Positions 41,908 to 64,000 are shown, counted from the stretch's first letter. The stretch: DNA of 64,000 nucleotides from an uncultured bacterium (GCA_964554015.1 CAZKMO010000003.1:127-64126), one strand, 5' to 3'. Made by a program: numbers and translations. The notes: generated by a model not told the origin, from the letters alone.

Positions 41908-41929
41908 TTATCTCTAATTTTTCTTCTAT

Positions 41930-45266: not shown

Positions 45267-45276
45267 GAAATCCTCT

Positions 45277-47091
45277 TTATTCTATAACTATAGCATCAAA
45301 TTTACATACTTCTTTACAGCTTCCGCATTGGGTGCAGAGTGTTTTATCGATAACGTGAGGTTGATTTTTTTCTCCCTTGATAGCTTCAACCGGACATGCC
45401 TTCAGGCAGACCCTACAGCCAGTGCATTTTTGAGTATCAATTCGATAGGTAATCAGTGCCTTACATACACCTGCCGGACATTTCTTATCTTTTATATGCG
45501 CTTCATATTCTTCCGGAAAATACTGTATTGTGGTCAGCACCGGATTAGGGGCTGTTTGACCCAATCCGCACAAAGAACCATTTTGAATGGTTGTTGCCAG
45601 TTCCTTAAGACGGGTCACATCACCTTTCTGTCCCCTCCCTTCTGTGATGGCATTTAAAATTTCCTTCATTCTCTGCAGTCCTACCCGGCAGGGAGTACAC
45701 TTGCCACAGGATTCATCTGCCAGGAAGGATACAAAATACAGGGCAACATCAACCATACAGGTATCCTCATCCATAATAATGAGGCCACCGGATCCCATAA
45801 TAGCACCTGCTTTATTCAATTCCTCATAATCTATGGGCAGATCAATAAGTGAAGCGGGAATGCATCCACCCGAAGGGCCCCCTGACTGTACTGCTTTAAA
45901 TTTCTTACCATTCGGAATACCCCCTCCTATACTATAAATTATTTCCCGCAGAGTAATACCCATTGGTACCTCTACCAGTCCGGAATTATTAATCTTACCG
46001 ACCAGGGAAAAAACTTTTGTTCCCTTACTCTTTTCTGTTCCCAATCCGGAAAACCAAGCACTTCCCTTAAGAATAATCATGGGTACATTGGCCCAGGTTT
46101 CCACATTATTGATATTGGTAGGCTTTCCCCATAAGCCCTTCTCAGCCGGATAAGGAGGTCGTGATCTCGGTCTTCCCACTTTTCCTTCAATGGAAGCCAT
46201 GAGTGCCGTCTCCTCCCCGCATACGAATGCTCCTCCTCCCCGAATTACTTCAATTTCAAAATCAAATCCTGTATTAAATATATTTTTACCCAACAGGCCG
46301 TATACAGTTGCTTGTTGAATTGCCTTCTTAATCCTGTCAACGGCAAGGGGATATTCGTCCCTTACATAGATAAATCCCTGATGTGCTCCCATAGCTTTGG
46401 CCCCAATAGTCATTCCCTCTATTATAGAATGGGGATCAGCTTCCAGGAGAGATCTATCCATATAGGCTCCCGGATCTCCCTCATCTGCATTACAGATCAG
46501 ATATTTTACTTTTCCCTTAGATTTTCGACATAATTCCCATTTCAATCCAGTAGGAAAGCCAGCTCCTCCCCTGCCCCGCAGTCCGGAAGTTTTTATCTCA
46601 GATAGTATCTTTCCAGGAGTCATTGAGGTTAATGCCTTAGCTAAGGCGGCATATCCATCAAAACTTATATATTCATCAATGCTTTCCGGATCCATTCTTC
46701 CCCTGTTCCTGAGTACAACCAAACGTTGATATTTGAAAAATTCAACATCCTGCATAGTGGGAATTTGTTTTTTTTCTTCCGGGGGAATATACATTAACTT
46801 TTTTACAGGATTACCTTTTAAAAAATGTTCTTCCACCAACAAGGGAATATCCTTTTCTTGGAGTTGTTGATAGAAGATATTATCCGGTTGTACAACTGCA
46901 ATTGGTCCCCGTTCGCAGAATCCATGACAATCTGTTTCCCTGACCTGCACTTTATTCTCAAGTCCTTGTTTTTTAATCTCTTGAATAAAAGTATTCTTGA
47001 TATCCCGGGATGCATGAGAATGACAGGATGTCCCTGCACAAATTAGTACTTGGATTTTAGGGGTCGCTTTTTTTGTTTTCATTCTATTCAT
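45277..47091 (-). CDS. NuoF-like NAD(H)-binding FMN iron-sulfur subunit (HydB/HndC/FdhB type) with an N-terminal thioredoxin-like 2Fe-2S domain and a C-terminal 2x[4Fe-4S] ferredoxin
   Basis: GGAGFPTGLKW, CGKCTPCRVG, C-terminal CTGCRVCLKACP and CTQCGSCKEVC. Confidence 0.85.
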   Translation of the reverse strand: MNRMKTKKATPKIQVLICAGTSCHSHASRDIKNTFIQEIKKQGLENKVQVRETDCHGFCERGPIAVVQPDNIFYQQLQEKDIPLLVEEHFLKGNPVKKLMYIPPEEKKQIPTMQDVEFFKYQRLVVLRNRGRMDPESIDEYISFDGYAALAKALTSMTPGKILSEIKTSGLRGRGGAGFPTGLKWELCRKSKGKVKYLICNADEGDPGAYMDRSLLEADPHSIIEGMTIGAKAMGAHQGFIYVRDEYPLAVDRIKKAIQQATVYGLLGKNIFNTGFDFEIEVIRGGGAFVCGEETALMASIEGKVGRPRSRPPYPAEKGLWGKPTNINNVETWANVPMIILKGSAWFSGLGTEKSKGTKVFSLVGKINNSGLVEVPMGITLREIIYSIGGGIPNGKKFKAVQSGGPSGGCIPASLIDLPIDYEELNKAGAIMGSGGLIIMDEDTCMVDVALYFVSFLADESCGKCTPCRVGLQRMKEILNAITEGRGQKGDVTRLKELATTIQNGSLCGLGQTAPNPVLTTIQYFPEEYEAHIKDKKCPAGVCKALITYRIDTQKCTGCRVCLKACPVEAIKGEKNQPHVIDKTLCTQCGSCKEVCKFDAIVIE

Positions 47092-47539
47092 ACTTTTTTA
47101 ATACTTTCTCTAGTTTTTTCTGATTCAGTTTTCCATGAAAATCTCCATCTATCACTACCACCGGTGCCAAGCCACAACAGCCAACACAGCGCACCGCCTC
47201 CAAGGTAAAACGCTTATCTTTGGTGGTTTCACCTGGATTAATCTCTAAATCCCGCTTTAGTTTATCCAGCAGTTTTGCTCCTCCTTTTACATGACAGGCA
47301 GTACCCAGACATACATTAATGGTATGACGTCCCCGGGGAGCCAGACTGAAAACTTTATAAAAGGTTGCCAGCGAATATAAACGTGACAAAGGTACTTTAA
47401 GTTCTTTGGCAACAAGGGATAGTTCCTCTTGAGGAAGATATCCCTTATGTTTCTGAATATCCTGGAGAATGGGAATTAATCCTGATTGCTTTTTTCCGTA
47501 TTGCTCCATGATTTTATTAATTGCTGACAAAAAAAACAC
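47084..47539 (-). CDS. NuoE-like thioredoxin-fold 2Fe-2S subunit (HydC/HoxE type)
   Basis: CLGTACHVKG...VRCVGCCGLAPVV cluster motif. Confidence 0.85.
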   Translation of the reverse strand: MFFLSAINKIMEQYGKKQSGLIPILQDIQKHKGYLPQEELSLVAKELKVPLSRLYSLATFYKVFSLAPRGRHTINVCLGTACHVKGGAKLLDKLKRDLEINPGETTKDKRFTLEAVRCVGCCGLAPVVVIDGDFHGKLNQKKLEKVLKKYE

Positions 47540-47563: not shown

Positions 47564-48076
47564 TTATTCCTTAGGGTAATCATGTATGTTAGAGAGAATT
47601 TTATCCTTGATTGTTTCAATTATTGCCGGCAAAGAAGATTTTATTTCCGGAGTGCAATTCTCATTAAAAGTCGAAATATCCTTGACTACCACTCCGTAAA
47701 TGGTGATATCACCGGTTATATTCATATTTATTTTCCTGGCTAAGCTAATTGCTTCCTTTAAGGATACCTGGTGTCTGGTCCAGGCAGAACCGCCTTTGAC
47801 ATCATTTAAGTTCATTTCAATTAAAGAACCGATGGATTCATCATTAGAAAGAACGGAATCGATTAAAATTACCCTTTTATAATCTGCCATAACATCTATC
47901 AGTTCCAATCCACCCATACTTGCCTCTTGGGTAACAATGTCGGGATTATCCAGGACTTTTTCAAGCTCTCTTACAATATAAATCCCCACACCATCATCAG
48001 AAAGTATGGTATTACCCAGTCCGATAATGAGTGTTTTCCCTTTTCTGTCTTCTGTAGTTAACAAGGAATGCCTCAT
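47564..48076 (-). CDS. NiFe-hydrogenase maturation endopeptidase (HyaD/HybD/HycI family)
   Basis: TLIIGLGNTILSDDGVGIYIV N-terminal family signature; 170 aa; 4-nt overlap with the fumarate hydratase beta subunit. Confidence 0.7.
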   Translation of the reverse strand: MRHSLLTTEDRKGKTLIIGLGNTILSDDGVGIYIVRELEKVLDNPDIVTQEASMGGLELIDVMADYKRVILIDSVLSNDESIGSLIEMNLNDVKGGSAWTRHQVSLKEAISLARKINMNITGDITIYGVVVKDISTFNENCTPEIKSSLPAIIETIKDKILSNIHDYPKE

Positions 48077-51532: not shown

Positions 51533-52195
51533 TTACAACCATTCCACCACTTTTTTTACTAATTTCTCAATTCCTGGGGCAATATCAGCTATTCCGGGAC
51601 CAAGCATATAGGCAGGTGTGGATACAATTCTGTGGTTTTCATCAACAGCTATCTCATCAACTTTACATGGTTTATGTTTTGCCCGAAAAAACTCTATATC
51701 TGAAGCTGTTTTACTGTCATTACCAATAGTAAGTAGAGGATGAATATCAGTATCTTTTAAGGCAACTGCTACTAAAATGGGAGCGATACACATTACTCCC
51801 AGAGGTTTTCTTGCTAGCACGGTATTATGAATGATATTTTTAACATCAGGATCAATAATACAATTGCGTCCTTTCACATCATAATCACTTAAATTTGTAG
51901 CTGCTCCTGCTCCACCGGGCAGAATTAAACCATCGAAATCATTAACGGATACTGAAGTTAAATTCCGTACCTCACCCCTGGCTATTCTGGCTGATTCTAT
52001 CAGTGTATTTCGCTTTTCCGACATTTCATTTTTGGAATTATGATTAATTACCTGGAATTGATTTTTATCTGGTGCAACGGGAATAACATCAACAATTTTT
52101 TTATTCAAAAAATATAAAGTCAGGGTTGCTTCCTGAATTTCTGATCCATCAAAAACTCCACAACCACTTAATAAAACACCAACTTTTTTATTCAT
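51533..52195 (-). CDS. DJ-1/PfpI superfamily protein, ElbB-like
   Basis: VGVLLSGCGVFDGSEIQEA N-terminus typical of ElbB. Confidence 0.7.
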   Translation of the reverse strand: MNKKVGVLLSGCGVFDGSEIQEATLTLYFLNKKIVDVIPVAPDKNQFQVINHNSKNEMSEKRNTLIESARIARGEVRNLTSVSVNDFDGLILPGGAGAATNLSDYDVKGRNCIIDPDVKNIIHNTVLARKPLGVMCIAPILVAVALKDTDIHPLLTIGNDSKTASDIEFFRAKHKPCKVDEIAVDENHRIVSTPAYMLGPGIADIAPGIEKLVKKVVEWL

Positions 52196-52293: not shown

Positions 52294-52719
52294 TTAAATA
52301 AAAATTTTTCTTTTTGCCGGATTTTCACCCATATTTTTTATTTTTTGGGTAAATTCGGTAGTAACTTTGACAAATCGAGCCCCTTCTGCAGCAGAAATCC
52401 AGGCTAATTTCAGTCGTTCAGATTCCAATCCCAGGCACTCAAAAATTTTAGATAAAATAATAAATCTCCGTCGTGTATGGTAATTCCCGGATTGATAATG
52501 ACAATCTCCCGGGTGACATCCTCCGATTAATACCCCATCTGCTCCATGAAAAAACGATTTCACCAGAAAGACCGGATTCACTCTGCTGGAACACATAACC
52601 CGGATTGGTAAAATGGAAGGAGGGTATTTCATACGACTGGTTCCGGCCAGATCGGCTCCAGAATATGTACACCACTTACATAGAAAACTTACTATTTTTG
52701 GCGTAAAATCTGATGTCAT
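52294..52719 (-). CDS. MvhD-like (methyl-viologen-reducing hydrogenase delta subunit / FlxD-type) [2Fe-2S] protein
   Basis: FLCKWCTYSGADLAG...IRVMCSSRVNP...GADGVLIGGCHPGDCHY. Confidence 0.8.
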   Translation of the reverse strand: MTSDFTPKIVSFLCKWCTYSGADLAGTSRMKYPPSILPIRVMCSSRVNPVFLVKSFFHGADGVLIGGCHPGDCHYQSGNYHTRRRFIILSKIFECLGLESERLKLAWISAAEGARFVKVTTEFTQKIKNMGENPAKRKIFI

Positions 52720-52763: not shown

Positions 52764-53891
52764 TTATTCTTCTCCGATTTCTTCAAATTCCTCTTCTTTG
52801 AATATAGTTACCGGCACCTGTTCATTTACATCTCTTCCCGGTATATATTCAAATATTTCCGCTACTTTTTCACCACATTTTCTAAAAATTACTGAAACTG
52901 GTATATCAGACGGGCATACTTCCGTACATTGACCACAGCCAATACAAGAAAAACTCATATGGCTTAATCTTCCTATTTGATACAATATGGTATCCGAGGG
53001 AAGCCGCAGTCCTCCCTTGCGGGATAATTCCTGTTCCATTATAGTATTGTCATAGTCATAGGTAGAGGACTCAAAATCGCAGAGTACACAATAGCATATG
53101 GGACAGACCCGGCTGCAGGCATGACATCCAATACATCTGCCAAATACATCTATCATACCGTCTAACCCGGTATCTTGTATTTTAATCTGTTTAAAAAGCT
53201 CCTCTTTATATTTTTTTCTTCTTTCCCTAATCTGATCATAACCAGTTCTATCAAATTCATCCTCTGTTTTTTCTACTTCAAATCCCTGAAGTATTTCTTT
53301 GGCCTTATCCGAATGTAAAAATATCTTGCAGGTACTATCAGCACCTGTTTCTCCTAGCAGGGAAACCGTTGCATCAGCATTAAAGGGAACAAAATATTCA
53401 CACGCTTTGCATATTTCTCTGATATGCTCAAACTCATTACCGGCGGCAACCGTTTTCCCATAATCAGGGAGCATGGTATCGACTTTATTTTCAACCGTTG
53501 CGGTTAAGGGTAAAGCTCCTCCGCAGGTATAAGAAATTAAGAGAAAATTTTCTAATTTTCCCTGGGAGCGCTTCACTAGTTCAATAAAAGAACGCAGTTC
53601 ACAGGGTTTTATCACTGCTGCTACCGGCATTTCCATTTTAATCATATTGGAAAGCATTTTACCAGCATTAACCGGCATCAAAGGATGTAAAGGTACTACA
53701 TCATGCAATAATTCCGGATCTGTTATCAGGGCATAATCAAATTTGCCCTGTTTTTTTGTTTTACGCAAACTACACACGCCACTCACTTTCTTATTTTTCA
53801 GCAGGTAGGTTAATAAATCAATTAATCCCGCTTCCGTACTCTTTTTTATGGTTAACACCTGATCCATACCTAATCTCCTATGCTTCTGCAT
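52764..53891 (-). CDS. FrhB/FdhB-like flavo-iron-sulfur subunit with a C-terminal 2x[4Fe-4S] ferredoxin (paralog 2)
   Basis: Paralog of the next gene; CKACEYF block comparable to FrhB CKICKDY; CIGCHACSRVCPICYC and CIGCGQCTEVCP. Confidence 0.55.
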   Translation of the reverse strand: MQKHRRLGMDQVLTIKKSTEAGLIDLLTYLLKNKKVSGVCSLRKTKKQGKFDYALITDPELLHDVVPLHPLMPVNAGKMLSNMIKMEMPVAAVIKPCELRSFIELVKRSQGKLENFLLISYTCGGALPLTATVENKVDTMLPDYGKTVAAGNEFEHIREICKACEYFVPFNADATVSLLGETGADSTCKIFLHSDKAKEILQGFEVEKTEDEFDRTGYDQIRERRKKYKEELFKQIKIQDTGLDGMIDVFGRCIGCHACSRVCPICYCVLCDFESSTYDYDNTIMEQELSRKGGLRLPSDTILYQIGRLSHMSFSCIGCGQCTEVCPSDIPVSVIFRKCGEKVAEIFEYIPGRDVNEQVPVTIFKEEEFEEIGEE

Positions 53892-55026
53892 CCTCTACCA
53901 GCTCTTGAATTCCTTTAACTTCCTCCAGTTTAAACGTTTTGAGAGGAATAGGTTCACCCTTATTTTCCCCGCTGGAATAACTGAATTGCTTCTGGGTATT
54001 ATGAGCTACATAACTGAAAATTTCTGCAACCGGAATTGATACTGGACAGGCATCTGTGCATAAACCGCAGGAAACACAGGAAAGACTCATATGCGACATT
54101 CGTCCCACCTGAAACATTATTCTGTTTTGCGGTAAAGAGATACTCCCTCTTTTTTTTGCCTTTAACATCGTTAAGTCGGTTCCAGAAGTTACCGATTCTG
54201 AATCAAAATAACACTGACGGCAGTAACAAATCGGACAGGCACTTTGGCAATTATGACATCCTATACAATCAGAAAAAGTGGCAAGCAAACTGTTGAATCC
54301 TTCCACCATCTTTTTTATTTGGGTAAACCTTCCTTTTTTCTGAGCTGCACGTTTATCTTTTATTTCTTGGATACCGTTAGCCCATGCTGATACAGTGTGG
54401 GAAGCTTCCATACCAATTTCTTTTAATACCAGATTACCTCTATTACTATTGGCTATTAAAAACATAGTATTATTTTGATCATGAAATAAGGTAAAATGCA
54501 GATCACTGACCGGCAGTAGAGAAAATTGATCGCATATCTTACATACTGGTTTTATGGATTTATTCTGAAAATCCAATTTTTTTAAAATATCGTTAAATTT
54601 TTTCTCCCCCTTTTCCGGATCATTCAGATAATCTTCCATGGGTAAAGCACCCGGACAATCATAACTAATGAGAGTAACATTTTCCAAATTAACCTGATTC
54701 AATTTTGAAAGTTCGATAGTTGCCCTGATTTCACACGGCCTCATTAAGGCAGCAATTTTAAGCATAGATTGTCCTTTACGGGAAAAGCTGCTCAAGGCCC
54801 TGGCTCCCTGTATAGGCATTATGGGCGCTGCTGGATCAGCTTCAGTCAGTAATTTTTCATCTTTTACCAGAATCCAGGCATAGGAATCCTTAGCCGGTAC
54901 TCTCATAGGAACCAGTACGGCATCAACAGATTTACTCTGTAGCATCTTTTTTAAAATATCCACTATGGAATCTCTATAATCCTTATTTGAAGAAATTTTC
55001 ACTCCCTTAGTTTGGATTTTCTTCAT
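53878..55026 (-). CDS. FrhB/FdhB-like flavo-iron-sulfur subunit with a C-terminal 2x[4Fe-4S] ferredoxin (paralog 1)
   Basis: N-terminal SIVDILKKMLQSKSVDAVLV resembles FrhB GGIVTGLL...GAVV; CKICDQF as in FrhB; CIGCHNCQSACPICYC and CVSCGLCTDACP. Confidence 0.55.
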   Translation of the reverse strand: MKKIQTKGVKISSNKDYRDSIVDILKKMLQSKSVDAVLVPMRVPAKDSYAWILVKDEKLLTEADPAAPIMPIQGARALSSFSRKGQSMLKIAALMRPCEIRATIELSKLNQVNLENVTLISYDCPGALPMEDYLNDPEKGEKKFNDILKKLDFQNKSIKPVCKICDQFSLLPVSDLHFTLFHDQNNTMFLIANSNRGNLVLKEIGMEASHTVSAWANGIQEIKDKRAAQKKGRFTQIKKMVEGFNSLLATFSDCIGCHNCQSACPICYCRQCYFDSESVTSGTDLTMLKAKKRGSISLPQNRIMFQVGRMSHMSLSCVSCGLCTDACPVSIPVAEIFSYVAHNTQKQFSYSSGENKGEPIPLKTFKLEEVKGIQELVEDAEA

Positions 55027-55037
55027 CGAGTGCTCCT

Positions 55038-56726
55038 TTAACTGATGGCTTCTTTCATTTCTTGGTGTATCTGAATAGTAGTAAAATGTTTAGCACGAAT
55101 AGCACCGGAGGGACAACTCCCCACACAATTACCACATCCCCGACAAATTGCCTCATTAACAACACATATTCCCCGCTCAGGATCAAAAGTAATGGCTCCG
55201 TAACAACATACCTCCCTACAGGTCTGGCATCCCATACAGAAATCTGGGATAATTTCAGAAACCTTTACTTCAGGAATTATCTTCTCACCCGGTATCAATT
55301 GAGTCACTATCTTTCCCTGTACTGCTTTGGCCTGCAATACTGACTCTGATATGCCCTGGGGTCCATGACATCCTCCGGCTATATAAATTCCTTCTAAGGA
55401 AGTTCCTATCGGATTAAGCTGAGAATGCGCTTCCTGAAAAAATTTTGTTGGATGTAAAGGTACATTCAAAAGTTCGGCTAATTCTTCTGTGCCTTCTGCA
55501 GGTACCATGGCAGGGGCAAGAATAATCATATCCAGATCCGCTTCTTTTTTACTCCCATTGACTTCTGTATAGGTGATGTGGGTTTTTTTAGTTGTTATAT
55601 CACTGATGCGTATAAAATCCACCTTCTTTTTTGCCATAGTATCAAAATATTCCTGATCGTATTTATGGGGAAGACATAGATCCTTATAAAAATCTTTGAT
55701 TAAAATAGTATCAGACTGATCTTTTAAATAGGATATAATTTTTAACATATAATTACAGCAAATCCGAGAGCAATACCCTCTATCCTCTCTTCCCACACAA
55801 TGTATCAATCCCACGGATTTGGGCTCTTTTCCTGATTTAAGCACAATTTTACCCTTTGCTTTCATCATTTGTTCAATTTCCAGGGCAGTATAGACATTAT
55901 CATCTTTACCATAAGCATGCTTTTTCAATTTTTCTGTTGGCATTAAGGCAAAACCAGTAGCAAGCACAATAGCACCGACTACAAATTCATTTGCGGTTTG
56001 ATCCTTTTTTGTACTTTTTACTGTTACTTCGAAATTACCAAAAAAACCTACGGCATTTTCTAATTTTGAGTCAGTAAAAACTTCTATATTTTCATTTTCC
56101 TGTATGGCAGTAATTTTCTTTGCCACCAAATCAGTATTATTCTCCTGACGGGGCAATAAATTTTTAAATGACTGGGCATTACCCCCTAAAATAGAATTTT
56201 TCTCAACCAGATACACTCTTCTTTGTTTACTGGCCAGAGAAAGTGCTGTTTCCATTCCCGTTATTCCACCTCCGATAACCAGAACATTGGGATTACTGTC
56301 CAGTTGTTTCTCTATAAGGACAGATTGATGTAAAACCCGGTTTATGGCAGCTTTAATGTAACTAATTGCTTTCTCAGTAGCTTTCTTTTTATCAGGTATC
56401 ATCCAGGCGCATTGTTCCCGGATATTAACCATTTTATACAAATAAGGATTTAACTTGGTTTTTTTGCAGATATTAATAAAGGTAATCTCATGATCCCGGG
56501 GAGAACAGGCGGCAATAACCAGGTGAGTTAATTCATTATCTTTTATCTCCTTTTCTAGATACTCCTTGCCTTCATTAGAACAAAGCAGTTTATAGGGTTT
56601 GATAATTAATTGTTTATTTTTATAATCTTCCGATGATGATATTCTTTCTATAACTTCATCTATATTAATATTATCTGCGATATTGGGACCGCATTCACAT
56701 ATATAAATACCGATTTTCGTACTCAT
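55038..56726 (-). CDS. HdrA-like FAD flavoprotein, long form (N-terminal Cys domain, thioredoxin-reductase-like FAD domain, CSRICC motif, two C-terminal 4Fe-4S motifs)
   Basis: IGIYICECGPNI N-terminus; VLVIGGGITGMETALSLA; GYCSRICCNYM; CMGCQTCREVC and CRGCGNCVGSCP. Confidence 0.8.
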   Translation of the reverse strand: MSTKIGIYICECGPNIADNINIDEVIERISSSEDYKNKQLIIKPYKLLCSNEGKEYLEKEIKDNELTHLVIAACSPRDHEITFINICKKTKLNPYLYKMVNIREQCAWMIPDKKKATEKAISYIKAAINRVLHQSVLIEKQLDSNPNVLVIGGGITGMETALSLASKQRRVYLVEKNSILGGNAQSFKNLLPRQENNTDLVAKKITAIQENENIEVFTDSKLENAVGFFGNFEVTVKSTKKDQTANEFVVGAIVLATGFALMPTEKLKKHAYGKDDNVYTALEIEQMMKAKGKIVLKSGKEPKSVGLIHCVGREDRGYCSRICCNYMLKIISYLKDQSDTILIKDFYKDLCLPHKYDQEYFDTMAKKKVDFIRISDITTKKTHITYTEVNGSKKEADLDMIILAPAMVPAEGTEELAELLNVPLHPTKFFQEAHSQLNPIGTSLEGIYIAGGCHGPQGISESVLQAKAVQGKIVTQLIPGEKIIPEVKVSEIIPDFCMGCQTCREVCCYGAITFDPERGICVVNEAICRGCGNCVGSCPSGAIRAKHFTTIQIHQEMKEAIS

Positions 56727-56743: not shown

Positions 56744-58030
56744 TTATCCTAATAATGAAAATACTTCTCCGACTGCAGATTCTGCCTGAATAACAGAATC
56801 CTCAATATCTTTGGGCCCTTCTGCGCAGCCAACAGTGAAAATTCCATCCACAGAGGTTTGAACCGTACCGATATACCCTTTCCGGGTTTGAAAAAATCCC
56901 TTGCGGTCACGTTCAATGCCTAAGATATCGGCAAGCTCTTTTGATGTTTTTGCCGGAACCAGAGCACAGGAAAGAATTACCATATCTACGTTCAGGGAAT
57001 TCTTAGAACCTTTGCCAGCAGTTAATTTAACCTGTAATTTTCCGTTATTCCCGGCTATTTGTACAATATCCGGGGCAGACTGAAAAATAAAAGTACTATT
57101 GGAATCTTTTATTTTATTATAAAAGCTCTGATAGCTTTTATTAGGAACACATATATCAGAATAAATATTATATACCGTTGCCTCCGGCAATTTATCTTTT
57201 ATAAAATGGGCATATTTAAAGGAATACATACAACAGACCCCGGAACAATACCCCAGCTCTTTTCTGCCTATACAATGGACTATTGCTACTGAATCAGGTA
57301 ATTTTTTCCCTTTCCGGAGTAACAGTTCACCTGAAGTGGGGCCATTAGAAGCATAGAGTCTCTCGAATTCCATGGAGGTGTAAACATTAGGTAATGTACC
57401 ATATCCAAAAGCAGAAAGTAGCTTACCTCCATATAAATCAAATCCGGTGGCGATTATAATTGCCCCAACCTCGATTTTTACCTGTTCATCCTTATCAGAA
57501 AAATTAATAGCCCCAAACATACAAGCTTCCGCACAGGCATTACAGCTTTTTTTTCCGGATAATCGTAAACAATGCCCGGAATTAATAGCAGGGACATTAG
57601 GAAGGGAACCGTCACAGGGTACATAAATAGCCTTCTTTTTGCCCAGATTTTCTTCCCATTCATTCTGTAAACTAACCGGACAGGGTTCATAGCAGGCTCC
57701 GCATCCAATGCATTCTGTCAAACTTACATATCTAGCTTTTTTATTGATGGTGACAGTAAAATTGCCAACTTGACCGTTAACAGCCTTAACTTCACTTAAA
57801 GTCATAACTTCAATATTATCATTTTGCAGTACATCCTGCTGTACAGGGGCTACCATACAGGTTGAACATTCTAAATTGGGAAAGCTTTCCTCGTTTTTTA
57901 TGGTATTTCCTCCAATGATGGGAAGTTTTTCAACCAGGACAACTTTCTTGCCGGCCTTGGCAAGCATAAGACTTGCCTGCATACCGGCTATTCCTGCTCC
58001 AATTATAAGAACATTATTTGAGTTACTCAT
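56744..58030 (-). CDS. HdrA-like FAD flavoprotein, short form (QmoA-like, inserted ferredoxin only)
   Basis: VLIIGAGIAGMQASLMLA; CIGCGACYEPCP; GYCSGVCCMYS. Confidence 0.75.
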   Translation of the reverse strand: MSNSNNVLIIGAGIAGMQASLMLAKAGKKVVLVEKLPIIGGNTIKNEESFPNLECSTCMVAPVQQDVLQNDNIEVMTLSEVKAVNGQVGNFTVTINKKARYVSLTECIGCGACYEPCPVSLQNEWEENLGKKKAIYVPCDGSLPNVPAINSGHCLRLSGKKSCNACAEACMFGAINFSDKDEQVKIEVGAIIIATGFDLYGGKLLSAFGYGTLPNVYTSMEFERLYASNGPTSGELLLRKGKKLPDSVAIVHCIGRKELGYCSGVCCMYSFKYAHFIKDKLPEATVYNIYSDICVPNKSYQSFYNKIKDSNSTFIFQSAPDIVQIAGNNGKLQVKLTAGKGSKNSLNVDMVILSCALVPAKTSKELADILGIERDRKGFFQTRKGYIGTVQTSVDGIFTVGCAEGPKDIEDSVIQAESAVGEVFSLLG

Positions 58031-58047: not shown

Positions 58048-58497
58048 TTAATAATAGGGATTTTCATTCAAAGGATTGGGACCTAACTTTTTAATTTTTT
58101 CCGTAAAACTGTTAACTACATCAGCATATCTATTACCTTCTGAGGCTGATATCCAGGCTAATTGAAGCCGCTCCGGATCAATTTTAAGTGTTTTAAACAC
58201 ACTCTTCAACATTGCATATCTGCGGCGGGTATAATAATTCCCCTTATCATAATGACAGTCACCTGGATGACATCCACCAATTAATATACCATCCGCTCCA
58301 TTGAAAAAAGTGGTTAATACCAAATTAAAATCAATCCGACTGGAACACATTACCCGAATAACAGTTAAATTAGGAGCAATCTCCAATTTGGAAGAGCCTG
58401 CTAAGTCCGCGGCTGCATAAGTACACCAATTACATAGGTACCCTACTATTTTGGGAGTAAATTTTTCTTTTCCATTAGATTCCATTTTAAATCCCAT
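58048..58497 (-). CDS. MvhD-like [2Fe-2S] protein
   Basis: YLCNWCTYAAADLAG...IRVMCSSRID...GGCHPGDCHY. Confidence 0.8.
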   Translation of the reverse strand: MGFKMESNGKEKFTPKIVGYLCNWCTYAAADLAGSSKLEIAPNLTVIRVMCSSRIDFNLVLTTFFNGADGILIGGCHPGDCHYDKGNYYTRRRYAMLKSVFKTLKIDPERLQLAWISASEGNRYADVVNSFTEKIKKLGPNPLNENPYY

Positions 58498-58597: not shown

Positions 58598-58822
58598 TTA
58601 AATTTGTATTTGTGCTTTATGTTTTCCCTCGGCATCAGTGGTGCACATCAGTAATGTTTTTCCTGTCTTTTGACACCAGGCTTTAATATCATTGGGAAAG
58701 GATTCACAATCTGCTTGAACTTCCAGAGTATCACCCGGATTTAACTGAGGGAGCATGGCTGCCACTTTTAAAATTGGTTGGGGACATTTTAATCCTAAAG
58801 TATCAAGTGTCTTTACTGCCAT
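58598..58822 (-). CDS. tusA: TusA-like sulfur carrier
   Basis: LDTLGLKCPQPILK carries the canonical CPxP motif; 74 aa. Confidence 0.8.
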   Translation of the reverse strand: MAVKTLDTLGLKCPQPILKVAAMLPQLNPGDTLEVQADCESFPNDIKAWCQKTGKTLLMCTTDAEGKHKAQIQI

Positions 58823-58993: not shown

Positions 58994-59386
58994 TTAAAAC
59001 GAAAAAGTCAAAGTTGCATCTTTGGCTTCATTGATAAAGGTGGTCGCACCGACTACTTCAATCCCGTCATTTAAATCCTCCCGGGTAAAATCATGCACAT
59101 CAAAGGCTAATTCACACACCAGTAACCTTCCTCCTAAGTTGAGAAAACCTTTGTATAATTCTTCCAGATCCGGAAGTGATGGTGCAGCTTGGTTTAATTC
59201 TTGAAGTTTTCCTTTTTTCATAGCTGGTGCTCCCCCCGGACAAAAGAAAATAATAACGTCATCCCCGCTGGCAACAGCTGATGACCCCAATATAAAAGGG
59301 GGATACACATTTTTGGTTTCTGAACCATTTACGGTAATTGCCATTTTTGCCATCTTTTTACCTCCACTGTTTTTCAGCAGATACAT
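58994..59386 (-). CDS. DsrE/DsrF-like (COG2210-type) sulfur-relay protein
   Basis: KMAITVNGSE...VYPPFILGSSAVASGDDVIIFFCPGGAPAMKKG matches the COG2210 pattern (AII.SSG...A...A.A...G..V..FFTFWG); candidate active Cys in FFCPGG. Confidence 0.55.
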   Translation of the reverse strand: MYLLKNSGGKKMAKMAITVNGSETKNVYPPFILGSSAVASGDDVIIFFCPGGAPAMKKGKLQELNQAAPSLPDLEELYKGFLNLGGRLLVCELAFDVHDFTREDLNDGIEVVGATTFINEAKDATLTFSF

Positions 59387-59459: not shown

Positions 59460-59852
59460 TCAATACACTATTGGTCCCAGATTATTTATATCATCAACAA
59501 AATTATTTACAATCTGCTGCAATTTTGCTGATTCCCCTTTATCAACCCATTCCAGTCTCAATCTGTCCGGATTAATACCGATTTGGTAAAGCATCATTTT
59601 TAATAAGGTAATTCTCCCCACAGTTTTATAATTTCCATCATGCTCACATTTTTCCTCAGGACAGGCGGTTATTAACACACCACTCACACCTTTCTGAAAG
59701 GTTTGTAAAATTAATTCCGGTGAAATACGACCGGAACACATGCTTACCAGAAATTTATGCTGATTATCAGTTTGCTGGGATAAGGTTCGGGAAAATTGCA
59801 ATCCCGGATAAGTAGACCAGTTACAATAAAACACAACAGTCTTTGTTTTCAT
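59460..59852 (-). CDS. Divergent MvhD-like protein (first motif CNWS instead of CNWC)
   Basis: VVFYCNWSTYPG...SMCSGRISPE...ITACPEEKCEHDGNY; start overlaps the upstream stop (ATGA). Confidence 0.6.
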   Translation of the reverse strand: MKTKTVVFYCNWSTYPGLQFSRTLSQQTDNQHKFLVSMCSGRISPELILQTFQKGVSGVLITACPEEKCEHDGNYKTVGRITLLKMMLYQIGINPDRLRLEWVDKGESAKLQQIVNNFVDDINNLGPIVY

Positions 59853-60412
59853 TCATTAACTCCTTCCAGAAATTCTTCTACCTGTTCATATAATTCTTTC
59901 TGACTTAAGCCAAATCCTTCCCGGCTGTAGGCTGCACCAGAGGGGCAGGCTGCCACACAGCAACCACAACTCTGGCATTTAACTCTGTCCACTACGATTT
60001 TATCGTTTTTTTCATCATAGGATCTGGCTTCATGTTTACAGACTGAGATACAAATCCGGCAACGACTGCACAGATCATCATTGGTTCGGGAGGTAGTTCC
60101 CAAAGCTTCAAATCCTGCCTCTACAAAATCAGCTTTGGCATCATTTAAAATATCGGTAATATCAACTTTAGCTGAACAGGCAGCATCACAGCGTTTGCAC
60201 ATATAACATTCAAATATTCTTTCAACTATTTCTTCATCCGGTTTGATATTACCCTGAAGCATACCATACAGCATGATTAATTTCCCCCTGGGAGTATCTG
60301 ATTCCCATCCGGTTATTTTAAAAATATGACAGTTTTCAAAACAATAGCCACAGCGTATACATACATGTAATTTATCCTGCCATTTTTTCAAACTTTCAAA
60401 TTTCATTTTCAT
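59849..60412 (-). CDS. HdrC-like polyferredoxin with four CxxCxxCxxxC motifs
   Basis: CIRCGYCFENC, CYMCKRCDAAC, CSRCRICISVC, CQSCGCCVAAC; TGA stop. Confidence 0.7.
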   Translation of the reverse strand: MKMKFESLKKWQDKLHVCIRCGYCFENCHIFKITGWESDTPRGKLIMLYGMLQGNIKPDEEIVERIFECYMCKRCDAACSAKVDITDILNDAKADFVEAGFEALGTTSRTNDDLCSRCRICISVCKHEARSYDEKNDKIVVDRVKCQSCGCCVAACPSGAAYSREGFGLSQKELYEQVEEFLEGVNE

Positions 60413-60430: not shown

Positions 60431-61498
60431 TCAATTTAATGCTTCCGCCACTAAATCAAGTACATTTAATACCTTTATTTTTCCATTGTATTCAGCAGCC
60501 ATATTCTTAAGATTTAATTCACAAGTAGGGCATAAGGTTACTAAATAATCTGCCTTGGTCTCCACTGCTTGTTTAACCCGATTGAAAGCTAACTGTTGAG
60601 ATAATTTTTTATCCGTAACCAGTAATCCCCCTCCTCCTCCACAGCAGGTTGCTTCCTTACCAAAGGTAGACATTTCAATAACTTCAGCACCTATTTCATT
60701 CAACAACCATCGTGGTTCGTCAACCATATCCAAACCTCTGGCCACATTACAGGGATCATGATAGGTTACTTTCAGGTTAAGTTTTTTAATCTTATTTTTA
60801 TAATTCGGAAGCAGTTTCACAATTTCATTTATAATATATTTTGCCTTCAAATCAGGATATTTCTTCTTAATGAAAAATACACAGGTAGTACAGGCGCATA
60901 TAATTTCATCATTGGTATCAGGAATAGACTCTCTGAATGTATTTTGCTGTTCAGAAAAACCTTTTTTATTTCCTAAAACCGCAAAGGGCATACCACAGCA
61001 GGTTTCTTCAAAAGTTTTTGGTTTAACTCCTAATTTCTCCAAAATATGAAGATATTTTTCCGAATCCTGTTTTCTCTCCAATAATCTGCACCCTAATAAA
61101 ACAGTTTTTTCCCCTTTAAATTCAGGAGCAGTTAAGTTTTGATTAAAAATATTACCACTCTGTTGAATTTTATCTAAAAGGAGATCGTGTGCTTCATAAT
61201 GATAACCAGCCTCATACAAATCAGCCCGCACGGCCGATATGATATCCGGTATGGAAACATTGGCAGAACATCTTTCTACACAATCCTTACAAAACGTGCA
61301 TTCATATAATTTCTGGGCAATAAAATCGGAAGGTTCTAATTCATCATATAATAAACCATAACTAAGCACAATCTTGCCCCGAGCTCCATCGACTTCCCAC
61401 CCTTGTTCCTGAAATACCGGACATCCTTCAAAACAGTAACCACAGCGTATGCAGCGATTGAGATCATCAACCCAATTTTTTAGATTTTTTGTTTCCAT
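60431..61498 (-). CDS. HdrD/GlcF-type iron-sulfur subunit: 2x[4Fe-4S] ferredoxin plus two CCG domains
   Basis: CIRCGYCFEGCPV, CTFCKDCVERC; CCG domains ...CCGMPF...CTTC... and ...CCGGGGG...CPTCE. Confidence 0.8.
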   Translation of the reverse strand: METKNLKNWVDDLNRCIRCGYCFEGCPVFQEQGWEVDGARGKIVLSYGLLYDELEPSDFIAQKLYECTFCKDCVERCSANVSIPDIISAVRADLYEAGYHYEAHDLLLDKIQQSGNIFNQNLTAPEFKGEKTVLLGCRLLERKQDSEKYLHILEKLGVKPKTFEETCCGMPFAVLGNKKGFSEQQNTFRESIPDTNDEIICACTTCVFFIKKKYPDLKAKYIINEIVKLLPNYKNKIKKLNLKVTYHDPCNVARGLDMVDEPRWLLNEIGAEVIEMSTFGKEATCCGGGGGLLVTDKKLSQQLAFNRVKQAVETKADYLVTLCPTCELNLKNMAAEYNGKIKVLNVLDLVAEALN

Positions 61499-61532
61499 TC
61501 CACCTTTCCCAAAATAGTATTAAGGTAAAAGA

Positions 61533-62975
61533 TTAATTAACGTTATACCGTAATTTAGTAGCAGTAACCCAATCATCAGGAGCATCCATCATCTTCCCTG
61601 GATTTAAAATATTATTAGGATCAAGTGCATTTTTGATGGCTTTCATATAAGGAAGTGAATCCTTTTTTTCCCGTTTAAAGGCAGGGGCTTTAGATAATCC
61701 GATTCCGTGTTCAGCTGAAGTAGTCCCACCCATTTCCATTACATAGTCATAAATTTCCTGCACCGCTTTTTTGGCATTATACCACTGTTTTCCTTTGGTT
61801 GCATCCATAAGAATTTTTGTATGCATACAACCGGAACCGCAATGGCCATAAGCAGTCATTATAACATTATTCTTTTTGGCAATCTCATGAATCCTGCGGG
61901 CCATTTTAGCCATTTTGGAATAAGGTACTGCCATATCATCAGCAAGAGAGGTGCAGGAATACAGATCCTTATACTTTGACAAGGCTGGAAACAGTTTTTT
62001 TCTTCCGGCAAAAAGTTTGGTTCGCGTTTCTGTATCATAGCTGTACTGTATCCCGCTTCCCTTATGTTCTTGACAAATCTTTTTCATTTTTTCAATCTCG
62101 AAATCTACTGCCTCTTTTACCATCCCATCAGCTTCAAACATTAAAATTGCTTCCACATCCGGTAATCCCATATCCATGGCTTTATTCACTGCAGTAATAG
62201 CAACATTATCCATCAGTTCCAGCAGGGAAGGCTGACACCCCCCGGCCATAATGGCAGCTATGGTATCGCCGGCATCTTCTAAGGTATTAAAATTTGCTAC
62301 TCCCAGACAGCGGAATTTGGGAAGGGGAACAAATTTCAACATTGCCTCTACAATGACTCCCAGGGTACCTTCTGAGCCTACTATTAATCTGTCCAATTGA
62401 TATCCAGCTGCTTCCACTCTGGTCCGGGAGCCCAGGTGTACTAAACTTCCGTCAGCCATTACCACTTCCATTCCCAGCAGGGAATCTCTAACAGCACCAT
62501 ACTTCACTGATCGTACTCCGCTGGCATTATTGGCAATTTCACCACCAATGGTCGCCACTCGGCTGGAAGCAGGGGCCACCGGATAAAAAACACCATAGGG
62601 TTTCAAAGCCCTGTTCAAGTCATCATCAATCACTCCCGCTTCTACTCGGCAATATCCATCCTGGAGATTTATTTCCAGAATTTTATTCATCTTTTTTAAA
62701 TCCAGGACAATACCCCCTTTAATAGGTACTGCCTGTCCTGACATTCCTGAACCCGATCCTCGAGGGGTAACAGGAATTTTCTCTGAGTTGGCATAACGGA
62801 CAATCTTCTGTACCTGTTCTTTTGTTTCCGGACGAATCACTACCCAGGCAAATGCCTCATGCACAGATGAATCTGAGCCATACACATATCTGGTTGCCGG
62901 ATCATCCCTGATATTATCTTTTCCTACAATTTTGCTTAATTTGTTAATATCTACTTTTGCCATAATTTTCCTCAA
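61533..62975 (-). CDS. FAD-linked oxidase of the GlcD / D-lactate dehydrogenase family
   Basis: PVTPRGSGSGMSGQAVP...GGIVLDLKKMNKI FAD-binding PCMH domain; C-terminal AEHGIGLSKAP...LDPNNILNPGKM. Confidence 0.85.
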   Translation of the reverse strand: MRKIMAKVDINKLSKIVGKDNIRDDPATRYVYGSDSSVHEAFAWVVIRPETKEQVQKIVRYANSEKIPVTPRGSGSGMSGQAVPIKGGIVLDLKKMNKILEINLQDGYCRVEAGVIDDDLNRALKPYGVFYPVAPASSRVATIGGEIANNASGVRSVKYGAVRDSLLGMEVVMADGSLVHLGSRTRVEAAGYQLDRLIVGSEGTLGVIVEAMLKFVPLPKFRCLGVANFNTLEDAGDTIAAIMAGGCQPSLLELMDNVAITAVNKAMDMGLPDVEAILMFEADGMVKEAVDFEIEKMKKICQEHKGSGIQYSYDTETRTKLFAGRKKLFPALSKYKDLYSCTSLADDMAVPYSKMAKMARRIHEIAKKNNVIMTAYGHCGSGCMHTKILMDATKGKQWYNAKKAVQEIYDYVMEMGGTTSAEHGIGLSKAPAFKREKKDSLPYMKAIKNALDPNNILNPGKMMDAPDDWVTATKLRYNVN

Positions 62976-62996: not shown

Positions 62997-63410
62997 CTAT
63001 TTTAACAATACTATTTTTGCTCTGGCTTTCGCATATATCTTGTCGTTTTCATCTTTTAGAGTGCTCTTTCCTATTAGCAATTTACCTTTATCTTCCAGTA
63101 TTTCCCCCTGAACAATAAATTCCTTTTTTATAAGAACCGGTTTCAAAAATCGAATCTTCAGTTCTGCAGTCAATCCTAAGGTTTCTTTGGCAGCATATAA
63201 TGCCCATATTATAGCATCATCTAAAATGGCACTGATAATACCGCCATGAACCATATTTTCATATCCGAGATGCTGGCTGCCACCCTGAAACCTAGTTTCC
63301 GATTTTCCCTTGTGCAAGGAAAATTTCAACTGTAATCCACAGGGATTATCCTGTCCGCAGACAAAGCAGTTGGGAAAGGTTGGGATAGATGTGGGTTCAA
63401 TTGTTTGCAT
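62997..63410 (-). CDS. Hotdog-fold thioesterase (PaaI/YdiI family)
   Basis: N-terminal CFVCGQDNPCGLQLKF and HGGIISAILDD. Confidence 0.7.
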   Translation of the reverse strand: MQTIEPTSIPTFPNCFVCGQDNPCGLQLKFSLHKGKSETRFQGGSQHLGYENMVHGGIISAILDDAIIWALYAAKETLGLTAELKIRFLKPVLIKKEFIVQGEILEDKGKLLIGKSTLKDENDKIYAKARAKIVLLK

Positions 63411-63427
63411 TTGATATAATTATAATT

Positions 63428-64000
63428 TTAAGCTGACTTCAGCACTTTTTGCATAGTTATTCCTATATCGGCCGGTGAATCAGTCACAGTTACTCCGCAT
63501 TTGCGTAAAGTATCTATCTTTTCTTTCGCAGTTCCTTTTCCTCCTGCTATGATAGCACCGGCATGTCCCATCCGTTTCCCGGGAGGTGCAGTTCTCCCTG
63601 CAATAAAACCTACTACCGGTTTATTAAATTCCTCTTTTATATATGCAGCTGCTGCTTCTTCATCACCTCCTCCTATTTCACCAATCATTACCACGCCTTC
63701 TGTTTCCGGATCATTTTTAAAAAGTTTTAAGGCATCAATGAATCTGGTGCCTATAATGGGATCTCCTCCCAGACCGATGCAGGTTGTCTGTCCTAATCCT
63801 TGTTTGGTAAGCTGATCAACTGCTTCATAGGTTAAAGTACCGCTTCTGGATATTACTCCGATTTTGCCCGGAGAATGAATAAAACCTGGCATTATGCCAA
63901 TCTTGCATTTTCCGGGAGTAATGACACCAGGACAATTAGGTCCAATCAAACGAACCTTTTTACCCTGTAAAAAGGTAATAACCTTAATCATATCCAAAGT
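63428..64000 (-). CDS. sucD: Succinyl-CoA synthetase alpha subunit; 5' end lies beyond the right window edge
   Basis: [23 protein letters not shown]...[12 protein letters not shown], plus phosphohistidine loop GHAGAII. Confidence 0.85.

Follow-up and report, generated by a model that had tools for sequence, protein, structure and literature searches.

A GlcD-type dehydrogenase subunit with two candidate iron-sulfur partners in an Hdr-rich gene string of an uncultured bacterium

The oxidation of substrates at -170 to -190 mV by anaerobes without quinone-linked enzymes is a general bioenergetic problem, and the electron acceptor of CCG-type 2-hydroxyacid dehydrogenases in these organisms has been a standing question since the description of Dld-II. 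In the anaerobe Desulfovibrio vulgaris, DldII-A and DldII-B (DVU3027-DVU3028) are adjacent GlcD-like and dicluster/2xCCG subunits without a GlcE; their genes belong to a lactate operon that also contains lactate permease, PFOR and pta-ack, and their physiological electron acceptor is not established (PMC4481167). Here we analyse a gene pair that compares with DVU3027-28 by architecture. It encodes a GlcD-like subunit linked to flavin adenine dinucleotide (FAD) and an iron-sulfur subunit with two CCG domains (the CCG protein), and is found on a 64-kb stretch of DNA from an uncultured bacterium (GCA_964554015.1, CAZKMO010000003.1:127-64126). This whole stretch is called the window, and all positions are counted along it. 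In contrast to the D. vulgaris operon, the window has no permease; the pair is found in the context of sucCD, fumarase, malic enzyme and Hdr genes, a second, alternative partner of GlcD is encoded beside it, and the GlcD pocket carries Tyr and Lys.

Further described systems share parts of this layout. In Shewanella Dld-II and E. coli YdiJ the same three modules follow each other in the order of the window, but are fused, whereas the genes of the window are separate, with 27% identity to the N-terminal part of YdiJ. E. coli GlcDEF likewise combines a GlcD-type catalytic subunit with a GlcF-type dicluster/2xCCG subunit. Acetobacterium woodii Ldh-EtfAB (LctBCD) contains the GlcD-family protein LctD (239 bits and a TM-score of 0.86 against the window's GlcD) and copes with a -190 mV donor by means of a flavin-based bifurcating/confurcating module; coupling there proceeds through EtfAB, while a polyferredoxin-MvhD-HdrA route is proposed for the window, and the LctD pocket is hydrophobic. 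The Mvh/Fdh-HdrABC complexes and Methanosarcina HdrA2, a HdrA-ferredoxin-MvhD fusion, have in common with the window the MvhD bridge to the FAD of HdrA and FdhB-like subunits. They differ in that the proposed donor of MvhD in the window is a 2-hydroxyacid dehydrogenase and not a hydrogenase or formate dehydrogenase, and in that HdrB and HdrC are fused in the window (CCG protein), with no CoM/CoB metabolism expected in a bacterium. Finally, the D-2-hydroxyglutarate dehydrogenase (D2HGDH) of humans and Pseudomonas, for which D-malate is a further substrate, shares the GlcD fold (TM-score 0.83), its electrons passing to ETF or other acceptors with no Fe-S subunit involved.

By itself, the GlcD-CCG pair adds one more member to a kind already described, the split Dld-II type of DVU3027-28 (PMC4481167). 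What appears to be new is that two paralogous output subunits, each encoded in the window, are alternatives for a single catalytic subunit; that a dedicated polyferredoxin-MvhD adaptor would lead from a 2-hydroxyacid dehydrogenase to HdrA; that a substrate other than lactate is predicted from the Tyr/Lys pocket and from racemase neighbours of the Mar-like type; and that lipoyl and sulfur carrier proteins accompany the CCG partner. In the literature, of which our search covered a part, we met with no account of a GlcD-polyferredoxin-MvhD unit beyond the raw COG co-occurrence tabulated in one supplement (PMC7583248). Taken as a whole, the observations are best explained, tentatively and at slightly less than even confidence, by a D-malate-like dehydrogenase with dual electron outputs.

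The catalytic subunit and the CCG protein

The following genes stand at the centre of the analysis:

61533-62963, minus strand: GlcD-like FAD-/metal-dependent D-2-hydroxyacid dehydrogenase subunit, 476 amino acids from ATG (Pfam)
60431-61498, minus strand: CCG protein, an HdrD/GlcF-like subunit, 355 amino acids (Pfam, cysteine motifs)
59849-60412, minus strand: polyferredoxin with four [4Fe-4S] motifs
59460-59852, minus strand: first MvhD, the [2Fe-2S] adaptor to HdrA (Pfam FlpD 8.7e-34), with a 4-bp overlap with the polyferredoxin gene

GlcD and the CCG protein are encoded by two minus-strand open reading frames (ORFs) lying exactly where an earlier reading of this DNA from the sequence only (the sequence-only reading) had placed them. 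The GlcD ORF (61533-62975) opens at TTG; the ATG at 62963 is the likelier start, and the protein begun there is 100% identical to database protein P0001. GlcD comprises the Pfam domains FAD_binding_4 (6.6e-46) and FAD-oxidase_C (6.1e-59). Its highest-scoring solved relatives are three enzymes characterised biochemically as D-lactate dehydrogenases, PdG-D-LDH (9qgz, 253 bits), A. woodii LctD (239 bits) and mouse LDHD (mLDHD, 225 bits), with D2HGDH (164 bits) and alkyl-DHAP synthase (ADPS, 99 bits) scoring lower. The structure 9qgz was deposited as 'glycolate oxidase' and is that of PdG-D-LDH, a characterised D-lactate dehydrogenase (PMC12724367). An AlphaFold2 model of GlcD of moderate confidence (pLDDT 71) reached TM-scores of 0.83-0.86 to mLDHD, LctD, PdG-D-LDH and D2HGDH in Foldseek, with E values of ~1e-30 to 1e-36 for the dehydrogenases and ~1e-23 for VAO-type oxidases and AGPS. 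Subsite A is complete, with R321, with H374, H381 and E418 as metal ligands and with H419 as the catalytic His. These residues are invariant across orthologs, align to R323, H371, H378, E415 and H416 of PdG-D-LDH and are conserved against LctD and mLDHD too.

The grouping with ADPS or other non-dehydrogenase FAD-linked oxidases that the sequence-only reading had named as its refutation is not seen; bit scores and Foldseek both place GlcD with the D-lactate/D-2-hydroxyacid dehydrogenases. An identity as alkyl-DHAP synthase or VAO-type oxidase was rejected (99 against 225-253 bits; Foldseek 1e-23 against 1e-36). Together with an Fe-S partner, GlcD is very probably a dehydrogenase.

The CCG protein shows the Pfam domains Fer4_8 (3.3e-12) and, twice, CCG (1.5e-26). 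Residues 1-100 form an HdrC-like 2x[4Fe-4S] module with the dicluster motifs C16xxC19xxC22xxxC26 and C67xxC70xxC73xxxC77. The two CCG motifs are complete with ten cysteines (C137..C167C168G..C203xxC206 and C250..C285C286G..C323xxC326), and all 18 motif cysteines are invariant in 30 homologs. The best NCBIfam match is the C-terminal half of TfrB (160.7 bits, cutoff 385), and HdrB scores 41 bits against a cutoff of 345. The AlphaFold2 model (pLDDT 87.7) has mycobacterial EtfD (9ojn, TM-score 0.76), LutA and HdrB as its nearest solved folds. A six-frame search of the window with E. coli GlcE matched the GlcD ORF only, and a second FAD_binding_4 ORF was not found in the window, which therefore has no GlcE. 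ORFs, Pfam domains, cysteine motifs and the GlcE search thus agree with the earlier description of an FAD-linked oxidase followed by a 2x[4Fe-4S]+2xCCG subunit without GlcE. The pair is a two-subunit, GlcE-less, FAD-/metal-dependent D-2-hydroxyacid dehydrogenase of the split Dld-II architecture.

Homologs of GlcD are named 'glycolate oxidase' by several sources, and the best NCBIfam match of GlcD is TIGR00387 glcD (403.6 bits). Both would fit a glycolate dehydrogenase that descended from a GlcDEF relative after loss of GlcE. This is scarcely credible: 403.6 bits lies below the equivalog cutoff of 567.9, as do the scores for E. coli GlcD (NF008408, 286 against 897) and GlcF (NF008434, 74 against 333) below theirs; identity amounts to 33% to E. 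coli GlcD (EcGlcD) and 22% to EcGlcF; no GlcE is present; the pocket is unlike the shallow hydrophobic one of EcGlcD; and a glcB/glcG context is lacking. Membership in GlcDEF was rejected on the equivalog scores, the identities and the missing GlcE. Of the Dld-II, LldEFG and GlcDEF types that the sequence-only reading had named for the pair, only the split Dld-II architecture (DVU3027-28) is retained, since LldEFG has no GlcD subunit and is unfit as a comparator, and GlcDEF fails on cutoffs and GlcE.

GlcD also carries a conserved C-terminal tail (residues 460-473, about 61545-61586; DAPDDWVTATKLRY), in which W465, R472 and Y473 are invariant. The tail is poorly modelled and is lacking in PdG-D-LDH, mLDHD and LctD. 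Possibly, it serves the Fe-S partners as a docking peptide.

Two candidate partners of GlcD

Members of the GlcD family, 68-91% identical across several phyla, come from metagenome-assembled genomes labelled Cloacimonadota, WOR-3, Stahlbacteria, KSB1, TA06, Armatimonadota, Desulfobacterales and Myxococcota. About 90 related loci were compared overall. For a census of partners, ORFs were called in 80 genome loci and labelled by the window's proteins, and the loci were classed by what lies directly downstream of GlcD:

Polyferredoxin and MvhD, split or fused: 43 loci and 9 short loci
CCG protein only: 11 loci and 5 short loci
Both partners: 5 loci, the class of the window
Neither partner: 2 loci
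Too truncated for class assignment: 5 loci

The class with neither partner may be an artefact of ORF calling, since the apparent 'long' ORFs of GlcD and of LarA in locus L045 are upstream ORF extensions and not fusions. In an independent scan that started from the CCG protein, 6 of 8 informative metagenome loci had GlcD immediately upstream. Some of the nearest representatives of 50%-identity clusters are natural GlcD::dicluster::CCG fusions (P0242, P0256, P0364, P0314 and P0302); P0242 (835 amino acids) is 45% identical in its GlcD half and 39% in its CCG half, and retains the Tyr/Lys pocket pair. Locus L041 has two tandem GlcD copies, one for each partner type (GlcD477-CCG351-GlcD480-fused polyFd/MvhD310).

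The two partners are related at their N-termini. In the window, the polyferredoxin is 46% identical to the CCG protein over 99 amino acids (E 1e-32); across the family, the median identity over the N-terminal ~100 residues is 49%, as compared to ~30% to E. coli GlcF. From these identities, an HdrC-like dicluster module is paralogous in the two partners, which differ at the output end. The census, the shared N-terminal module, the fusions and L041 support a physical pairing of GlcD with either partner, and we consider dual alternative outputs for GlcD reasonably probable. A GlcD 72% identical to that of the window, followed by a fused polyferredoxin-MvhD, was also met in a genome binned as a Thermoplasmatales archaeon (L032), by horizontal transfer or mis-binning.

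The output end of the polyferredoxin (proposed output B) would lead to Hdr proteins. Its C-terminal 2x[4Fe-4S] domain has its PDB match in the ferredoxin domain at the C-terminus of HdrA (8rvu_a residues 583-640). On the NCBIfam HdrA2 profile, the C-terminus of the polyferredoxin takes positions 569-640 and MvhD positions 649-774; the two are collinear with HdrA2 569-774, the very part missing from a 428-amino-acid HdrA-like protein encoded downstream. An HdrA2-like polypeptide of the Methanosarcina type looks split and redistributed over genes of the operon. In Desulfobacterales, polyferredoxin and MvhD are fused in one protein, a fusion found in L001 and about 40 more loci. To our knowledge, MvhD is known only as a [2Fe-2S] bridge to the HdrA flavin, as seen in Mvh-Hdr structures (e.g. 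5odc).

An HdrA-like gene lies within 10 kb in 19 loci of the polyferredoxin type, as compared to 2 CCG-only loci. In Cloacimonadota, the module is flanked by FrdAB-like genes and an MvhG/MvhA-type [NiFe] hydrogenase, sucCD and fumarase; in Desulfobacterales, it adjoins a MetF/HdrA/MvhD cluster or PFOR. In the window, MvhD and HdrA-like genes are co-encoded, with three FlpD matches (8.7e-34 to 6.5e-51) and two HdrA-like proteins. Judged by gene content and profile matches, the conserved link to Hdr is the polyferredoxin-MvhD gene pair and not the CCG subunit. Gene order and the collinearity with the HdrA2 C-terminus point to a putative MvhD-HdrA complex with bifurcating or confurcating activity. 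The substrate-oxidising arm feeding an Hdr module that the sequence-only reading had envisaged is plausible, but its adaptor would be the polyferredoxin-MvhD pair, the CCG gene being missing from L002 and 52 of the 80 loci.

The proposed output A, the CCG protein, keeps other company. A GcvH-like gene with a conserved lipoyl lysine (Pfam 129.9 bits) is present in 12 of the 16 CCG-only loci and in 0 of the 64 other loci. It stands between the LarA homolog and GlcD (L043 9528-9959 and 11 further CCG-only loci). In the window clade, DsrE-like and TusA genes are present. These GcvH-like and DsrE-like/TusA associations are a hint at thiol-based carriers for the CCG protein, and a lipoyl protein is a possible target of this subunit. 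A comparison suggests itself with the sulfur-oxidising Hdr-like (sHdr) systems, to which, with their TusA, DsrE and lipoate-binding LbpA, we presume a resemblance. HdrA-like and HdrB/C-like (CCG) proteins co-occur with TusA and a DsrE-like protein in the window, and a GcvH/LbpA-like protein with GlcD-CCG in WOR-3. The window differs from sHdr loci in lacking the order hdrC1B1A-hyp-hdrC2B2 and in having GlcD and MvhD; sulfur-oxidation genes were not seen in it.

The same company allows another role for the CCG protein, that of an HdrBC-equivalent terminal (di)sulfide reductase of an HdrA complex, acting on DsrE/TusA-bound sulfur, while GlcD would use polyferredoxin-MvhD only. By its domains the CCG protein is indeed an HdrC+HdrB fusion, and DsrE-like and TusA genes are part of the operon. 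Moreover, the CCG gene comes after MvhD, not GlcD, in L006 and L022, and CCG proteins are encoded without GlcD beside HdrA (L087) and beside an aminotransferase and a TrxB-like (thioredoxin-reductase-like) gene (L086). We hold this role to be quite unlikely, given that GlcD-CCG stands in 16 loci without polyferredoxin/MvhD and mostly without HdrA nearby, that GlcD::CCG fusion proteins exist, that both partners of GlcD begin with paralogous modules, and that L002 retains DsrE but lacks the CCG gene.

As far as output A of GlcD is concerned, the GlcD-free CCG genes of L086 and L087 nevertheless weigh against dual outputs. So does L002, whose GlcD is 91% identical: as the CCG gene is missing there, output A is dispensable. 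A further point on this side is that CCG domains are able to feed quinone instead of disulfides. EtfD (9ojn) passes electrons to menaquinone, and a CCG domain alone is therefore no proof of disulfide chemistry.

Substrate and electron flow

In crystal structures, the side-chain pocket of these enzymes, subsite B, is lined by the residue at Arg+4, a Ser/Thr/Lys position, and the residues at His1-2 and His2+2. It is hydrophobic in mLDHD (W351, S365, I407) and PdG-D-LDH (Y327, I369, L380); in human D2HGDH (T390, K401, Y432, N443) it is polar/cationic and binds the distal carboxylate of D-2-hydroxyglutarate or D-malate (PMC10589216, PMC7801405, PMC12724367). The window's GlcD has F325, A341, Y372 and K383 in subsite B. 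The pocket pair Y372/K383 (His1-2, His2+2), read by motif-anchored extraction, does not vary among the 81 orthologs of the loci and is kept in 120 of 120 database homologs. Among 150 diverse superfamily representatives, a Y/K pair occurs three times and Y/R three times, and V/L, F/N and F/T dominate. The pair is I/L in PdG-D-LDH, V/I in mLDHD, V/L in EcGlcD, Y432/N443 in human D2HGDH and F/R in E. coli YdiJ; LctD has Y at His2+2. GlcD thus resembles YdiJ in a cationic residue (Arg in YdiJ) at the K383 position. With D2HGDH it shares subsite A, the Tyr at Y432 (Y372) and the polar/cationic character of subsite B; K401 and T390 of D2HGDH are not conserved, A341 and F325 taking their places, and the positive charge of the window protein (K383) falls on the N443 position.

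A second line of evidence comes from neighbouring racemase genes. A LarA homolog is encoded near GlcD in 46 of the 80 loci, and 50 such homologs were analysed. Their best match in the PDB is the malate racemase Mar2 (207.8 bits), with lactate racemases at 192 and 179 bits. All 50 have the G-x-H-K motif of Mar2, and 49 its Q-K pair. From these motifs, LarAH 'group 4' is predicted to racemise malate or a close analogue; its gene context includes COG0247 (39%), COG0277 (17%) and COG1908/MvhD (17%; Table S1), and true lactate racemases (LarAH group 1) occur with ETF and lactate permease (PMC7583248). By these motifs, the LarA homologs beside GlcD would match LarAH group 4. Besides the Q before the catalytic K and the K in helix alpha14 (GHK motif), the Mar signature comprises a Y-K loop, where these homologs have Y-F.

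Gene context points in the same direction. The 80 loci contain sucD in 19 cases, fumarase in 13, a FrdA-like gene in 13 and malic enzyme in 6. L089 and L090 share a FumA (class I fumarase)-FumB-GlcD-CCG core. In L090, genes for a Cache-domain histidine kinase and a sigma-54 response regulator come next, with malic enzyme farther downstream; the layout is that of a C4-dicarboxylate-type regulon. Synteny hence bears out the link to succinate/C4 metabolism at which the sequence-only reading had hinted. No homolog of the lactate permease LldP was found across the 90 loci or in the window, and none of the C4-dicarboxylate transporters DctA and DcuB in any of the 90 loci, so that transporters offer no positive evidence for any substrate. 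Pocket residues, racemase type and gene context place a dicarboxylic D-2-hydroxyacid above D-lactate and glycolate. On homology and synteny, a polar or dicarboxylate substrate other than lactate is slightly favoured; D-malate is a possible first choice, with D-2-hydroxyglutarate second.

An ordinary Dld-II D-lactate dehydrogenase of the DVU3027-28 type, oxidising D-lactate to pyruvate and feeding the Hdr/MvhD module, would be in line with the sequence-only reading. Much speaks for it: the top three solved relatives of GlcD are D-lactate dehydrogenases, and the architecture is that of DVU3027-28, which is genetically tied to D-lactate (PMC4481167). LarA-family racemases are adjacent in the 46 loci, some Desulfobacterium loci have PFOR next to the module, an ElbB glyoxalase downstream is a potential source of D-lactate, and Ldh-EtfAB sets a precedent for lactate oxidation that requires confurcation. 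Yet the positions that form the hydrophobic methyl pocket of PdG-D-LDH and mLDHD are invariantly Tyr and Lys here, and the adjacent LarA homologs show signature residues of the Mar type, not of the LarA type. Their context also differs from that of LarA group 1 (ETF, lactate permease), with no lactate permease in the 90 loci and C4-dicarboxylate metabolism dominating. We regard a D-lactate dehydrogenase as unlikely on balance.

The Tyr/Lys pocket bears equally on D-2-hydroxyglutarate. A split, YdiJ-like D-2-hydroxyglutarate dehydrogenase would supply 2-oxoglutarate, to be converted to succinate and ATP by a 2-oxoacid:ferredoxin oxidoreductase and SucCD. It would account for Y372, the equivalent of human D2HGDH Y432, for the cationic residue at His2+2 (Arg in YdiJ) and for the gene order 2-oxoacid:ferredoxin oxidoreductase-sucC-sucD-thioesterase-GlcD of the window clade; YdiJ, moreover, has an equal set of FAD, Fe-S and CCG domains and also adjoins a hotdog thioesterase. 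It is nonetheless improbable, because A341 and F325 replace K401 and T390 of D2HGDH, the NCBIfam YdiJ score of GlcD is 213 against a cutoff of 1350, the adjacent racemases have the Mar-type GHK motif instead of an NQT motif, as reported for 2-hydroxyglutarate racemases, and fumarase lies directly upstream in L089 and L090.

Other observations weigh against a D-malate-like dehydrogenase as such. The pocket argument is one from homology, the GlcD model is of no more than moderate confidence (pLDDT 71), and by sequence and fold the closest characterised relatives are D-lactate dehydrogenases. In a neighbour-joining tree with few characterised sequences, the GlcD family formed its own tight clade with no clear sister. 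The 64-kb window and the closest relatives have no LarA homolog, and the LarA-homolog loop reads H-Y-F, between H-Y-K of Mar2 and H-F-F of LarA. PFOR adjoining the module in several Desulfobacterium loci and the ElbB glyoxalase downstream in the window both fit lactate or pyruvate, and the lack of DctA and DcuB belongs on this side as well. Lastly, we infer both the direction of electron flow and the formation of complexes.

In the proposed mechanism of the D-malate-like dehydrogenase, a D-2-hydroxyacid would be bound at the metal, Arg and His site and its hydride transferred to FAD; in many relatives, a Mar-like nickel-pincer racemase would supply the substrate. Single electrons would leave FAD via the HdrC-like dicluster module of either partner. 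On route A, the two CCG-bound clusters would pass them to a thiol, persulfide or lipoyl carrier, or to quinone; candidate carriers are the DsrE-like protein and TusA in the window and the GcvH-like protein in WOR-3. On route B, they would run through two further [4Fe-4S] clusters to the [2Fe-2S] cluster of MvhD and on to the FAD of an HdrA-like flavoprotein, where these mid-potential electrons (about -170 to -190 mV) would be combined with reduced ferredoxin (confurcation). A donor at about -170 to -190 mV is unable by itself to reduce NAD(P)+, protons or CO2. Coupling to reduced ferredoxin, as in Ldh-EtfAB, or to an acceptor of high potential, e.g. fumarate, would be thermodynamically sensible. 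FdhB-like, NuoEF/FdhA-like and NfnAB-like genes nearby might provide the electron exits.

Rather doubtful is the further step of combining a D-malate dehydrogenase and a nickel-pincer malate racemase into a bypass of NAD-dependent L-malate oxidation with electrons going to HdrA or to carriers. L-malate would be converted to D-malate and this to oxaloacetate, the electrons passing either through polyferredoxin-MvhD to an HdrA confurcating/bifurcating complex or through the CCG subunit to lipoyl/persulfide carrier proteins.

With one conserved catalytic subunit and two swappable outputs, the GlcD family is a directly testable system. If dicarboxylate specificity is true, the LarA-homolog group 4 gains a function and malate racemisation a physiological purpose. 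If electrons from D-malate indeed reach Hdr, a role would be found for widespread, physiologically unexplained malate racemases, and a new class of electron donors for Hdr-type flavin-based bifurcation in uncultured anaerobes, the lineages concerned being Cloacimonadota, WOR-3, Marinimicrobia-like lineages and Desulfobacterales. Should the enzyme be a plain D-lactate dehydrogenase, the finding shrinks to a further Dld-II member with an Hdr-linked variant partner.

The surrounding gene string

The other genes of the string, in the direction of their transcription, are:

63428-63997, minus strand: sucD, succinyl-CoA synthetase alpha subunit, incomplete at the window end (NCBIfam 303 bits, profile positions 103-290)
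62997-63410, minus strand: hotdog-fold (PaaI-like) thioesterase, directly upstream of GlcD (Pfam 4HBT 4.5e-07)
58994-59353, minus strand: DsrE-like small protein, a possible sulfur carrier (Pfam DrsE_2 1.8e-15; NCBIfam DsrE2 52.7 bits, below cutoff)
58598-58822, minus strand: TusA-family sulfurtransferase, 74 amino acids, CPxP motif (Pfam TusA 66.6 bits, cutoff 28.6)
58048-58497, minus strand: second MvhD (Pfam FlpD 4.6e-50)
56744-58030, minus strand: short HdrA-like flavoprotein, 428 amino acids (NCBIfam HdrA2 395 bits, below cutoff)
55038-56726, minus strand: second HdrA-like protein, 562 amino acids (NCBIfam HdrA2 418 bits, below cutoff; Pfam Pyr_redox_2 and Fer4_7)
52764-55026, minus strand: two tandem paralogous FdhB/FrhB-like Fe-S proteins, 382 and 375 amino acids (no NCBIfam match)
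52294-52719, minus strand: third MvhD (Pfam FlpD 6.5e-51)
51533-52195, minus strand: ElbB-type glyoxalase equivalog, downstream of the Hdr module (287 bits, cutoff 180)
47564-48076, minus strand: HycI-like maturation protease
42732-47539, minus strand: NuoE/NuoF-like genes and an 844-amino-acid NuoG/FdhA-like molybdopterin protein
40504-42748, minus strand: NfnAB-like genes

According to the ORF calls, every gene across 42.7-64 kb lies on the minus strand. A PaaI thioesterase and sucD precede the GlcD-CCG pair, just as the sequence-only reading had it; its view that the pair heads an Hdr-like operon has to be given up. Gaps of only 17-33 bp separate sucD, thioesterase and GlcD, and the equivalent string of the relatives L046, L091 and L092 starts further upstream, with subunits of a 2-oxoacid:ferredoxin oxidoreductase and sucC. 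The pair is internal to the gene string and not demonstrably the head of a transcription unit. A scan for consensus promoters and terminators gave 51 sites, as compared to 43±7 in shuffles, i.e. it did no better than these; since the scan is uninformative, we claim no operon boundary.

The thioesterase occupies the equivalent position in L002, L003, L005, L006, L008, L009, L046 and L091. A similar adjacency is seen in E. coli K-12 (L093), where ydiJ overlaps menI, a hotdog thioesterase gene; BLAST shows no similarity between the window's thioesterase and E. coli MenI, so that the parallel holds at fold level only.

On the downstream side, a gap of 496 bp seems to separate the DsrE-like gene from the second MvhD; the TusA gene sits inside it and had been overlooked in the sequence-only reading. 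Started at M12, the DsrE-like protein has 119 amino acids, as in L002 and L091. TusA and the DsrE-like protein would be a sulfur-relay pair within the Hdr-like operon. The two HdrA-like proteins both stay below the NCBIfam HdrA2 cutoff of 1100 bits. The short one covers HdrA2 positions 139-560 only, without the C-terminal ferredoxin domain, and the second has an N-terminal domain and a C-terminal ferredoxin domain. Top PDB matches of the 382-amino-acid FdhB-like protein (53878-55026) are FdhB subunits of Fdh-Hdr supercomplexes (9t1s_M, 8e-29). Pfam Fer4 is found in both FdhB-like proteins and a weak FrhB_FdhB_C match in the 375-amino-acid protein only. FdhB subunits of methanogen supercomplexes bridge formate dehydrogenase to HdrA. 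No hydrogenase large subunit was found in the 64-kb window.

Past ElbB, the string continues with malic enzyme, a two-subunit class I fumarase, the HycI-like protease, the NuoE/NuoF/FdhA-like genes and the NfnAB-like genes. Glyoxalase III enzymes produce D-lactate or glycolate. ElbB is also encoded in L005-L007 and L009, and follows directly after GlcD-polyferredoxin-MvhD in L007 and L009.

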